Positions 60,211 through 61,614 of a stretch of DNA of 64,000 bases are shown here, one piece after another (positions within the stretch are counted from its first letter, which is position 1; the number at the start of each line of letters is the position of its first letter). The stretch lies in contig JAIKVR010000009.1 in NCBI GenBank assembly GCA_024685545.1, forward strand, positions 19,828 to 83,827, in the 5' to 3' direction. Position numbers and translations under genes: made by a program. The notes under the pieces are model-generated. The model ran no database searches and had not been told where the DNA came from. It saw only the letters and a program-made list of their open reading frames with translations. The stretch is from Eubacteriales bacterium (GTDB lineage Bacteria > Bacillota > Clostridia > Eubacteriales > Anaerofustaceae).

Positions 60211-61110
60211 TCAACGTTCAAAGGACCGTTCCCGTTTTCTCAAAAGCTGCAACGACTTGTCCAAGATCTTTTTCTTTCGTTCCTTCAACATTGTCAGATA
60301 GAATGTCTTTTGCAGTTCACTTATATATGGCGTCATATTCACCAAATCTGTGATCCTCTTCATATCGATCCGAGGGACAATTCGCTTCAATGCATCGTTG
60401 CACCCCTTATCCTTCAATGATGAAATAAAGTCAAAATAGCGAATTTTTTGATTATTGAGGCGGATGGCGGAAAAAGGAATCTGGAAAATGCGCAAGTCAC
60501 GCTCCGCCGGATCATCCAAGGTGACCTGCATAATCGAGTCGTCCGCCTGTGGGTAGAGACAGCTACCGCAGCCAAATACCGGTGCGATAGAGATTTCATC
60601 CATTCTGCTGTTGTACAGAAAGCCCCAGTTACCGTTGTGTCTGTCCCAGTTTCCAATCAGCGCATCGACAATAAACATATCCCAAAAAAATCGTTTCAAC
60701 ACGTCTGGGTCAATCGAGGATTGTTCGTTTATCGCTTCCAGTATCTCGGAAAGCTCCGTACCATATCCGCTGTGACCGGAATCAATCAGTGTGTTTTTTA
60801 ATGACGTAAAATCCTGTATGACTGTTTCATGGTTTGTAAAGTCCTTACACGCTACCACTACCTTCGTTTTTCCTTTTGCCGTGTAGGTTCCAAGCAGGGT
60901 CTCCTGTACTGGAATCCCAACTATCTCAAAAATATGGGAGCCTAAGTATTCAGAGATACAAATGTTTGAATAGCTCATTTCCTTGTTGTGCTTCGGATGA
61001 GGCGGGAATTTCAGCATATACTGCTCACCATCGTATATGACAGCAATCTTGCCTCCGTTTGCCCCGGCATATGCCTTTCTTGTCGTCGGCATATCGGTAA
61101 AATCGATCAT
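60211..61110 (-). CDS. short HipA-like Ser/Thr kinase (HipA C-terminal-domain family), putative toxin
   Basis: 299 aa. It has a Gly-rich loop YAGANGGK, a Lys in YMLKF, and the catalytic-loop signature DALIGNWDRHNGNWGF (HipA family D-x-H-x-x-N). The ATG overlaps the stop of the upstream HTH gene (ATGA at 61107-61110). Confidence 0.8.
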   Translation of the reverse strand: MIDFTDMPTTRKAYAGANGGKIAVIYDGEQYMLKFPPHPKHNKEMSYSNICISEYLGSHIFEIVGIPVQETLLGTYTAKGKTKVVVACKDFTNHETVIQDFTSLKNTLIDSGHSGYGTELSEILEAINEQSSIDPDVLKRFFWDMFIVDALIGNWDRHNGNWGFLYNSRMDEISIAPVFGCGSCLYPQADDSIMQVTLDDPAERDLRIFQIPFSAIRLNNQKIRYFDFISSLKDKGCNDALKRIVPRIDMKRITDLVNMTPYISELQKTFYLTMLKERKKKILDKSLQLLRKRERSFER

Positions 61111-61562
61111 TCGGATTCCTCCATACGCAGATAATTGCGGCGGAGATACTGCGCCTGCTCCTTGGATATGCTCTGGTCAACTTCCGCTGTATTGATGTCC
61201 GCATTCAGTTCACACCAATAGATGTCCCAGTGTATATCCCGCCCTCCGTTGTCTTCTATCTCCCAGGAGCGCTTCATCGCGGCAAGAGATTGTGCCAGAT
61301 AGGTCGGGAGTCCTTTTTCCAGATAAGAATCGTTCTTGGGAAGTCCTGTCTCTTCACCATAATTGGACGTATCTATCATCATAATCTCCTCCATAGAACA
61401 ATTTAATGCTTTTGCAAGCCGAAAAACAGTTCCCGCATTGCATCCCTCAATAGAACTTTTGCCAGAGCATATATCGATCACCGTTGTATTCGGCACACCG
61501 CTGATTTTCGACAGCTTATACATGGACATATTCCGTTCTATTAACAGTGTACGCAAATTCAT
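61107..61562 (-). CDS. XRE-family HTH protein with about 85-aa C-terminal extension, putative HipB-like antitoxin
   Basis: The HTH reads MSMYKLSKISGVPNTTVIDICSGKSSIEGCNAGTVFRLAKALNCSMEEIM. I do not recognise the C-terminal domain (…WEIEDNGGRDIHWDIYWCELNADINT…). Confidence 0.8.
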   Translation of the reverse strand: MNLRTLLIERNMSMYKLSKISGVPNTTVIDICSGKSSIEGCNAGTVFRLAKALNCSMEEIMMIDTSNYGEETGLPKNDSYLEKGLPTYLAQSLAAMKRSWEIEDNGGRDIHWDIYWCELNADINTAEVDQSISKEQAQYLRRNYLRMEESE

Positions 61563-61585
61563 ATTTTGCCTTTCTTACCAGCCAC

Positions 61586-61614
61586 ATTATATCGGTTAAC
61601 CGATATAATGTCAA
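61586..61614 (-). promoter_or_regulatory. consensus promoter with embedded 24-bp perfect palindrome (operator) for the HTH/HipA-like operon
   Basis: On the minus strand: TTGACA (61614-61609), a 17-nt spacer, then TATAAT (61591-61586). The sequence ATTATATCGGTTAACCGATATAAT (61586-61609) is a perfect inverted repeat covering the spacer and the -10. Confidence 0.75.

Follow-up and report, generated by a model that had tools for sequence, protein, structure and literature searches.

What do a short HipA-type kinase gene and the helix-turn-helix (HTH) gene that overlaps it encode, and is the pair still armed where it was found? The question is raised by two adjoining genes in a stretch of 64,000 nucleotides from an Eubacteriales bacterium (Anaerofustaceae), hereafter the window (assembly GCA_024685545.1, contig JAIKVR010000009.1, positions 19,828-83,827 of the forward strand). 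The original prediction, made from the letters of the window, saw in them a bicistron resembling a Hip-type toxin-antitoxin (TA) module, with a core-only kinase and an HTH partner carrying an extra domain, and the Pfam matches, the protein lengths and the gene overlap all bear this description out. The answer that we consider probable is that the cassette is a mobile two-gene unit of the Hip type, built around a kinase of the CtkA family and with the anatomy of a type II TA system, and that in this particular copy the toxin has been disabled. Both genes lie on the minus strand. The partner gene (61107..61562, 151 amino acids), which codes for a putative antitoxin and autorepressor with an XRE-type HTH followed by a three-helix domain, precedes the gene of the short, CtkA-type kinase (60211..61110, 299 amino acids). 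The two overlap at 61107-61110, where TCAT on the plus strand reads as ATGA on the coding strand, and a Shine-Dalgarno sequence (GGAGGA, 61117-61122) stands 6 nucleotides ahead of the kinase ATG, forming what looks in the sequence like a junction for translational coupling (61107..61122, minus strand). The open reading frames (ORFs), this overlap, the promoter and the palindrome had all been placed correctly by the earlier reading.

The kinase matched a single Pfam family, HipA_C (PF07804; 41.1 bits over a cut-off of 30.5, E 2e-10, residues 21-207). Among the proteins of known structure it aligned with CtkA of Helicobacter pylori (PDB 3AKJ, 3AKK and 3AKL) at E 1.7e-96, residues 2-285 of the query falling on residues 4-285 of the chain. 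The family, which the original prediction had left unplaced, is therefore that of CtkA, since the match to this crystallised protein runs over the full length. HipT of Legionella, also searched among the PDB sequences, reached E 0.7; NCBIfam gave a weak and partial match to YjjJ; and the candidate-defence model PDC-M03A of PADLOC was matched over the full length of the protein at E 1.1e-22. On its sequence, the protein is thus a core-only Ser/Thr kinase of the HipA superfamily, CtkA-type and clade-XI-like, the Gly-rich loop starting at residue 15 of 299. Its homologues form at least 8000 clusters, and relatives are encoded in at least 561 GTDB species genomes, almost all of them from Clostridia of the gut or rumen. 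At position 13 (window 61072-61074), the equivalent of the autophosphorylated Ser150 of HipA, 90 of 200 family members have Thr and 103, among them the window kinase, have Ala; autophosphorylation may regulate some members of the family and not others. As to whether the pair falls into an already characterised subfamily, which the original prediction had allowed for, CtkA does have a crystal structure but is not described as a TA toxin in the literature that we searched. In that literature no link of CtkA to an antitoxin was found either, CtkA and HipA appearing together in a single paper and there only as structural neighbours, and CtkA is not mentioned in Gerdes 2021 (PMC8262856).

The N-terminal part of the partner (residues 1-61; 61380..61562, minus strand) is an XRE/Cro-type HTH according to Pfam (HTH_26 at 1.1e-09 and HTH_3 at 2.8e-07, residues 2-61), to the AlphaFold2 model and to Foldseek, in which this domain resembled Cro, C2 and SinR-type HTH proteins with TM-scores of 0.7-0.8 normalised to the target. 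Residues 62-151 had no Pfam match. The full-length model, built from an alignment of 39 sequences, has a mean predicted local distance difference test (pLDDT) score of 89.1 and consists of a five-helix HTH at residues 3-61, a weaker linker and a C-terminal domain (residues ~66-151; 61110..61367, minus strand) predicted to be all-helical and devoid of strands, with a short helix at 78-82 and three long ones at 87-104, 112-128 and 134-144 (pLDDT 95-98 over the core). Modelled alone, this domain gave a pLDDT of 88.6 and a predicted TM-score of 0.76. Its invariant residues include P86, I123/N124, R141 and Y144/L145. Profile searches of the PDB sequences at E <= 10 found no relative of it, and Foldseek found no significant structural neighbour (best E 0.49 in the PDB and 0.43 in BFVD, both generic three-helix bundles). 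With the full-length model Foldseek did return Stl(1-159), DdrO and similar repressors made of an HTH and helices, weakly (E 0.01-0.08); for the Stl(1-159) chains the E-value was 0.035-0.08, the TM-score 0.36 and the root-mean-square deviation (rmsd) ~15 Å, a weak match. The C-terminal domain is thus, as far as the model goes, an unannotated helical family without a relative in Pfam, the PDB or Foldseek. No model in Pfam, NCBIfam or PADLOC names it, the partner as a whole had no PADLOC match, and of the two proteins these databases recognise only the kinase (HipA_C, PDC-M03A).

This domain is nevertheless common. We found 533 homologues of the partner with a length of about 150 amino acids, and a phmmer search with residues 62-151 among 1.84 billion representative proteins retrieved 226 representative clusters at E <= 1e-3. 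Three architectures were present in them: the XRE-HTH followed by the domain (about 150 amino acids), the domain alone (65-110 amino acids) and the domain behind other heads. Two of the proteins with another head carry a bona fide RelB antitoxin domain (Pfam RelB, 6e-10 and 8e-10), and a RelB-headed partner overlaps a 304-amino-acid HipA_C gene by 4 bp. Hidden Markov models (HMMs) were built for the kinase and for each of the two domains of the partner and were run on all ORFs of 80 genome loci with kinase relatives. In 79 of them the ORF directly before the kinase carried the C-terminal domain, and the sole exception is a locus that begins 66 bp before the kinase, so that it holds no upstream DNA. 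An HTH was present in 60 of these 79 partners and absent from the remaining 19. In the HTH-less loci that we inspected no separate HTH gene was found upstream; the neighbours there are unrelated housekeeping genes, and hence these loci conceal no third gene. Mapped on a maximum-likelihood kinase tree, the presence or absence of the HTH requires 6-10 changes, and bacterial families are interleaved along it. Since the linkage holds in 79 of 80 loci, with heads that may be XRE, RelB or none, the constant unit is the three-helix domain together with the kinase, the DNA-binding head being exchangeable. An interchangeable DNA-binding head on a constant tail is the classical build of a type II antitoxin, and the pair appears to share this generic design. 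It is from this linkage that the strongest, if indirect, argument comes that the three-helix domain neutralises the kinase. The extra domain, already suspected of being the neutralising part, is therefore the best candidate for that role, being the kinase's constant neighbour (79 of 80 loci), with or without an HTH, and also behind RelB.

Instructive examples of the short partners came from plasmids and other mobile elements. In plasmid pCfviMP1 of Campylobacter fetus (NZ_CP007000.1; L082:2784-4771) a 68-amino-acid protein annotated as hypothetical, which matches the domain HMM at 5e-19, is encoded directly before a CtkA-like kinase of 320 amino acids, and a Fic-family gene comes next in the row. 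This trio adjoins an IS200/IS605 tnpA-tnpB pair, and the tfs3 element of H. pylori carries fic as an alternative cargo at the position of ctkA. In a relaxase-bearing gut element a 70-amino-acid domain protein precedes a 339-amino-acid kinase beside genes for ThsB-TIR and a zeta toxin. Names of Campylobacter and of Helicobacter rodentium were among the matches of the search with the partner domain, and none from H. pylori. We also noticed two loci of a different layout. On a plasmid of Megamonas funiformis (NZ_CP048628.1; L083:2395-3975) a 41%-identical kinase overlaps an upstream 136-amino-acid protein that does not match the domain HMM and is itself preceded by a VbhA-like antitoxin gene, and this plasmid may hold a different type of partner for the same kinase family. 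In a gut metagenome (L100:2469-5469) a HipA_C gene of 419 amino acids lies directly upstream of a cassette made of an HTH partner and a 299-amino-acid kinase, two Hip-type kinases thus adjoining each other.

The evidence that the toxin of this copy is probably inactive begins with a single residue. The core elements that had been listed for the kinase, the Gly loop (G16-K21), Lys34 and the catalytic loop DRHNGN (D156-x-H-x-x-N161, with D156, H158 and N161), are indeed all present. However, the segment IAPIFDCGS of CtkA aligns with IAPVFGCGS in the window kinase, so that codon 180 (60571..60573, minus strand), at the position of Asp179 of CtkA, specifies a Gly that had escaped notice. The Asp normally found here corresponds to the Mg-binding Asp of the Hip kinases, the roles of the residues being assigned from the alignment. 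Mutants in the equivalent Asp are reportedly non-toxic in the case of HipA and inactive in that of CtkA. Among 200 family members, position 180 is Asp in 191, Gly in seven and Ala in two, each of K34, D156, H158 and N161 varies in at most one, and the Gly loop is likewise all but invariant. The nine sequences without the Asp are 64-100% identical to the window protein, a spread which indicates that some six separate lineages have lost it to Gly or Ala. Gly180 also occurs in three other assemblies of the same lineage (L105, L106 and L107) and is therefore not an assembly error. The fold and the membership in the HipA superfamily hold, and the catalytic complement is, to judge from these alignments, incomplete at the Mg-binding Asp.

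The pattern of substitutions points in the same direction. The closest relatives that retain the Asp are L088 and L089 (86% identity), and the Gly180 codon is one base away from the Asp codon of L088. Between the window and L088 there are 49.3 nonsynonymous and 109.7 synonymous changes in the kinase gene (dN/dS 0.07) and 30.7 and 54.3, respectively, in the partner gene (dN/dS 0.08). Within the Gly lineage, between the window and L105, the kinase gene has six nonsynonymous changes and one synonymous (dN/dS ~1.6), and the partner gene none and one (dN/dS 0). At least six nonsynonymous changes out of seven would be expected with a probability of ~3e-4 under the long-term constraint of the family (a binomial estimate) and of ~0.5 under neutrality. 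Given the Gly in place of the Mg-binding Asp and a rate of change that looks neutral in the kinase next to an unchanged partner, the toxin half of this copy is most likely catalytically disabled. An inactive and non-toxic kinase, an outcome that had been foreseen as damaging to a TA role, is thus likely here, as Gly180 and the relaxed constraint suggest for this one locus. Similar decay was found elsewhere. In Helicobacter rodentium (GCA_948728835.1; L110:3001-3950) a 69-amino-acid partner gene is kept, the kinase is reduced to a stub of about 28 codons, and an AbiEii gene follows; in addition, partner and kinase have been fused by a deletion in some metagenomic proteins. Decay in which the partner is kept and the toxin is lost is a pattern typical of TA pairs.

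There are also signs of the mobile nature that had been suspected. The 1.73-Mb genome has one copy of the kinase, and none of the 40 relatives sampled from its genus, family and order has any. G002, a genome of the same genus, is syntenic at the gene matching window 53275-55613 and directly after it at a 141-amino-acid ORF (59538-59955), where the synteny ends; both the amino-acid ABC operon (55.6-59.5 kb) and the kinase cassette are missing from G002. The ABC operon is therefore an insertion relative to G002, which lacks it between the syntenic genes. The 141-amino-acid ORF (window 59539-59964, minus strand), downstream of the kinase, is basic and has a homologue ~50% identical in a translated alignment in G002, directly beside the gene that matches window 53275-55613. 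It was considered as a third component of the cassette and rejected, having no family matches and being conserved in the cassette-less G002. A 79%-identical copy of the kinase is flanked by genes for a large serine recombinase, a ParM-like partition protein and a MobA/MobL relaxase, a setting in which addiction modules are classically found. The neighbours of other cassettes include Fic/VbhA and Fst (on the Megamonas plasmid), AbiEii (in H. rodentium), ThsB-TIR, a zeta toxin and PIN. From its absence in the 40 relatives and in G002, and from the company kept by the 79%-identical copy, the cassette is evidently horizontally mobile or accessory. It also lies, as had been noticed, in an A+T-rich islet beside a TnpB gene: G+C is 0.41-0.46 over 58.5-62 kb versus 0.51-0.54 upstream, and the TnpB gene begins at ~63.1 kb. 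Only one record labelled as phage held a relative of the kinase, an unannotated 8-kb contig from human faeces entered as 'Bacteriophage sp.' (MT839556.1; 56% identity over 99% of the length).

The cassette appears to bring its own control region. A perfect sigma-70-type promoter of the bicistron, TTGACA-17-TATAAT with 12 of 12 consensus positions (61614..61586, minus strand), was the only such site in the region, shuffled sequences holding a mean of 4.6 weaker ones. A perfect palindrome of 14+14 nucleotides, ACATTATATCGGTT/AACCGATATAATGT (61584..61611, with no strand), spans the spacer and the -10 element and is a candidate operator for a dimer of the HTH; the promoter and palindromic operator of the earlier reading thus both stand, the latter as a candidate. 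The promoter is kept in L088 and L089, and so are the half-sites ATTATATCGG / CCGATATAAT (with one mismatch in L088), the central 4 nucleotides varying. The contexts of these two loci are unrelated, one being an RHS/YD region and the other lying beside a PIN_3 pair, and the conservation of half-sites and promoter across them indicates that the cassette carries its promoter-operator with it.

Several described systems resemble the cassette in part. Like hipBA of Escherichia coli K-12, a type II TA system with palindromic operators, it has a gene for an HTH autorepressor (here putative) before the gene for a kinase of the HipA superfamily. Unlike in hipBA, the N-subdomains that precede the Gly-rich loop in HipA (440 amino acids) are absent from the window kinase, and whereas HipB is a plain HTH of about 88 amino acids, the partner has an extra 85-amino-acid domain which is conserved with the kinase instead of the HTH. 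The closest published organisation is hipRG, for which five modules were catalogued, with an upstream HTH protein having a 'Stl-like' second domain and a core kinase of 279-321 amino acids (PMC8262856). The comparison is one of descriptions, and the two families may be the same or distinct. The cassette agrees with it in the core kinase (299 amino acids, within that range), in the preceding HTH gene of antitoxin type with a 4-bp overlap, in the Ala, neither Ser nor Thr, at the position of HipA Ser150, and in that the full-length partner retrieves Stl weakly, as Phyre2 did for HipR. It differs in extent, with at least 561 species genomes here against the five catalogued modules, in the ~45% of the family that have Thr at the Ser150 position, and in a likeness to Stl that is marginal. 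PDC-M03 consists of a HipA-like kinase and a HIRAN protein (PMC13245101), and corresponds to the organisation of the hipIN modules, in which HipN is encoded downstream of the kinase (PMC8262856); both have short clade-XI-type kinases like that of the window. Membership of the cassette in PDC-M03/hipIN was rejected, as the neighbours of the kinase match no PADLOC model and the downstream 141-amino-acid ORF has no HIRAN match.

CtkA itself shares with the window kinase the core-only HipA-like fold, the N-terminal Gly-rich loop and the DRHNGN catalytic loop, and is likewise variable cargo of a mobile element, the integrative and conjugative element tfs3. It differs in keeping the Mg-binding Asp, where the window kinase has Gly180, and in a C-terminal tail of about 25 residues (301-325, ending KRRR), proposed as a signal for the type IV secretion system (T4SS). 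The window kinase has no such tail: it ends at residue 299 (...KRERSFER), and its alignment with CtkA stops at CtkA residue 285. Gut homologues of CtkA, ~50% identical, that also lack the C-terminal tail have been described (PMC5536186).

If the preferred reading of a mobile Hip-type cassette with TA anatomy is right, a dimer of the HTH would bind the palindrome over the -10 element and spacer and so repress the operon, and the three-helix domain would bind the kinase and neutralise it. Once freed, the kinase would phosphorylate an essential target, perhaps in the translation apparatus by analogy with HipA and HipT, and the resulting growth arrest could stabilise the element, serve abortive phage defence, or both. 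In this copy the antitoxin and repressor would remain with a kinase that is decaying or has been repurposed. Several observations weigh against such an account. Recombinant CtkA was overproduced in a heterologous bacterium, which argues against a strong general toxicity of this type of kinase, at least in that host. A search for terminator-like sites 3' of the kinase gene gave none. In distant relatives, arms of at least 9 nucleotides occur in only 3 of 58 loci of the HTH type and most have no perfect palindrome, the operator being therefore a feature of the sub-lineage. The signal of relaxed selection amounts to seven substitutions, and dN/dS is inflated anyway between bacteria that diverged very recently. 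Finally, kinases that lack the DFG-type Asp may retain scaffolding or weak catalytic roles.

This last point leads to the reading that the window kinase works despite Gly180, through other Mg ligands or as a pseudokinase scaffold, and that the cassette is fully functional. The ORF is intact and of full length, all the other catalytic residues are present, the promoter, operator and coupling signals are perfect, and the recurrence of Gly or Ala in some six lineages could mean that the variant is tolerated. We regard this as distinctly unlikely, however, with the Asp found in 191 of 200 relatives and in CtkA, and with a ratio of 6:1 nonsynonymous to synonymous changes in the kinase that rejects the long-term constraint (p ~3e-4) next to 0:1 in the partner. 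A larger, though still minor, share of probability goes to the possibility that the family is primarily a sensor of abortive infection or phage defence, the partner acting as a repressor of the Stl/CapH type which a phage protein releases. It overlaps with the TA reading and differs from it mainly in the trigger and the purpose. Phage-triggered release of the kinase was proposed by Gerdes et al. for HipR of hipRF and hipRG (PMC8262856), the kinase matches PADLOC PDC-M03A (1.1e-22), the full-length partner finds Stl(1-159) and DdrO in Foldseek (E 0.01-0.05), and ThsB-TIR and AbiEii are neighbours elsewhere. Yet the similarity to Stl is weak in TM-score and rmsd alike and the domain alone matches nothing; PDC-M03 is defined by a HIRAN partner, absent here, the partner of the window having no PADLOC match; a single unannotated phage-labelled contig has a kinase relative; and several copies have partition and relaxase genes for neighbours, like the TA pairs that stabilise plasmids.

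The work on CtkA suggests a different direction, in which the kinase would be an exported, host-directed effector or a signalling kinase and the upstream protein a transcription factor or chaperone. CtkA has been reported to act as a pro-inflammatory kinase that depends on the T4SS (PMC5536186). Its overproduction in a heterologous bacterium is possible, and secretion chaperones, too, are typically small helical proteins with a gene upstream of that of their partner. Nevertheless, neither the window kinase nor the gut homologues have the secretion-signal tail, the partner domain occurs behind a bona fide RelB antitoxin head, the cassette is found among TA and partition genes, and its distribution is patchy over hundreds of species and incongruent with taxonomy, all of which makes an effector role improbable here. 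Least credible is the idea that the cassette is a fused system of the HipBST type, with the C-terminal domain as an equivalent of HipS that supplies the N-subdomain of HipA. As in hipBST of E. coli O127 and Legionella, the kinase is short, lacks N-subdomain 1 as HipT does, and would be neutralised by a protein other than a plain HipB, and HipS meets HipT through a small three-helix sub-domain (PMC10627512), which makes a helical interface not implausible. However, hipBST has three genes, the kinase matches HipT only at E 0.7, and HipS, homologous to the N-subdomain of HipA, is a five-stranded beta-sheet with three helices (PMC10627512), whereas the partner domain is predicted to be all-helical and unrelated. 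No HipS or HipA chain was among the 50 best of 161 Foldseek matches at E <= 10, nor was any found by the PDB profile searches. The suggestion that the domain stands in for HipS or the HipA N-subdomain is therefore unsupported, and a HipS-like reading of it was dropped.

The TA reading can be extended from this locus to the whole group, with a confidence that falls somewhat short of even. The CtkA-type kinases overall would then be the toxins of a large, unnamed Hip-type family of TA or defence systems, with at least 8000 clusters in at least 561 species and possibly including H. pylori CtkA, whose neutraliser would be an undescribed three-helix domain, alone or behind interchangeable heads, and the recurrent loss of the Asp would be a record of disarmament. 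For the locus itself the significance is modest, as it is probably a disarmed copy of a common mobile cassette. The partner domain has no name in Pfam, NCBIfam or PADLOC, so that TA and defence annotation overlooks a cassette carried by hundreds of species of the gut and rumen. CtkA, the one member studied experimentally, has been read purely as host-directed, and a conserved intracellular partner would put a bacterial role of the TA type on the table. The HTH-fused form with its clean promoter-operator offers a convenient entry for testing autoregulation and neutralisation by the putative new antitoxin domain, and the natural Asp-to-Gly alleles are ready-made inactive controls.

Two further features of the surroundings were noted. 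A stretch of ~100 bp that shortly precedes the TnpB gene (window 62990-63093) is probably the end of an IS605-family/TnpB element; G002 contains at least 10 copies of it, of which several lie where contigs end. The HAD-family gene (window 61738-62914, minus strand) is split between two ORFs that overlap in different frames, 61738..62616 and 62486..62914, which would fit a frameshift or a homopolymer misread in sequencing.

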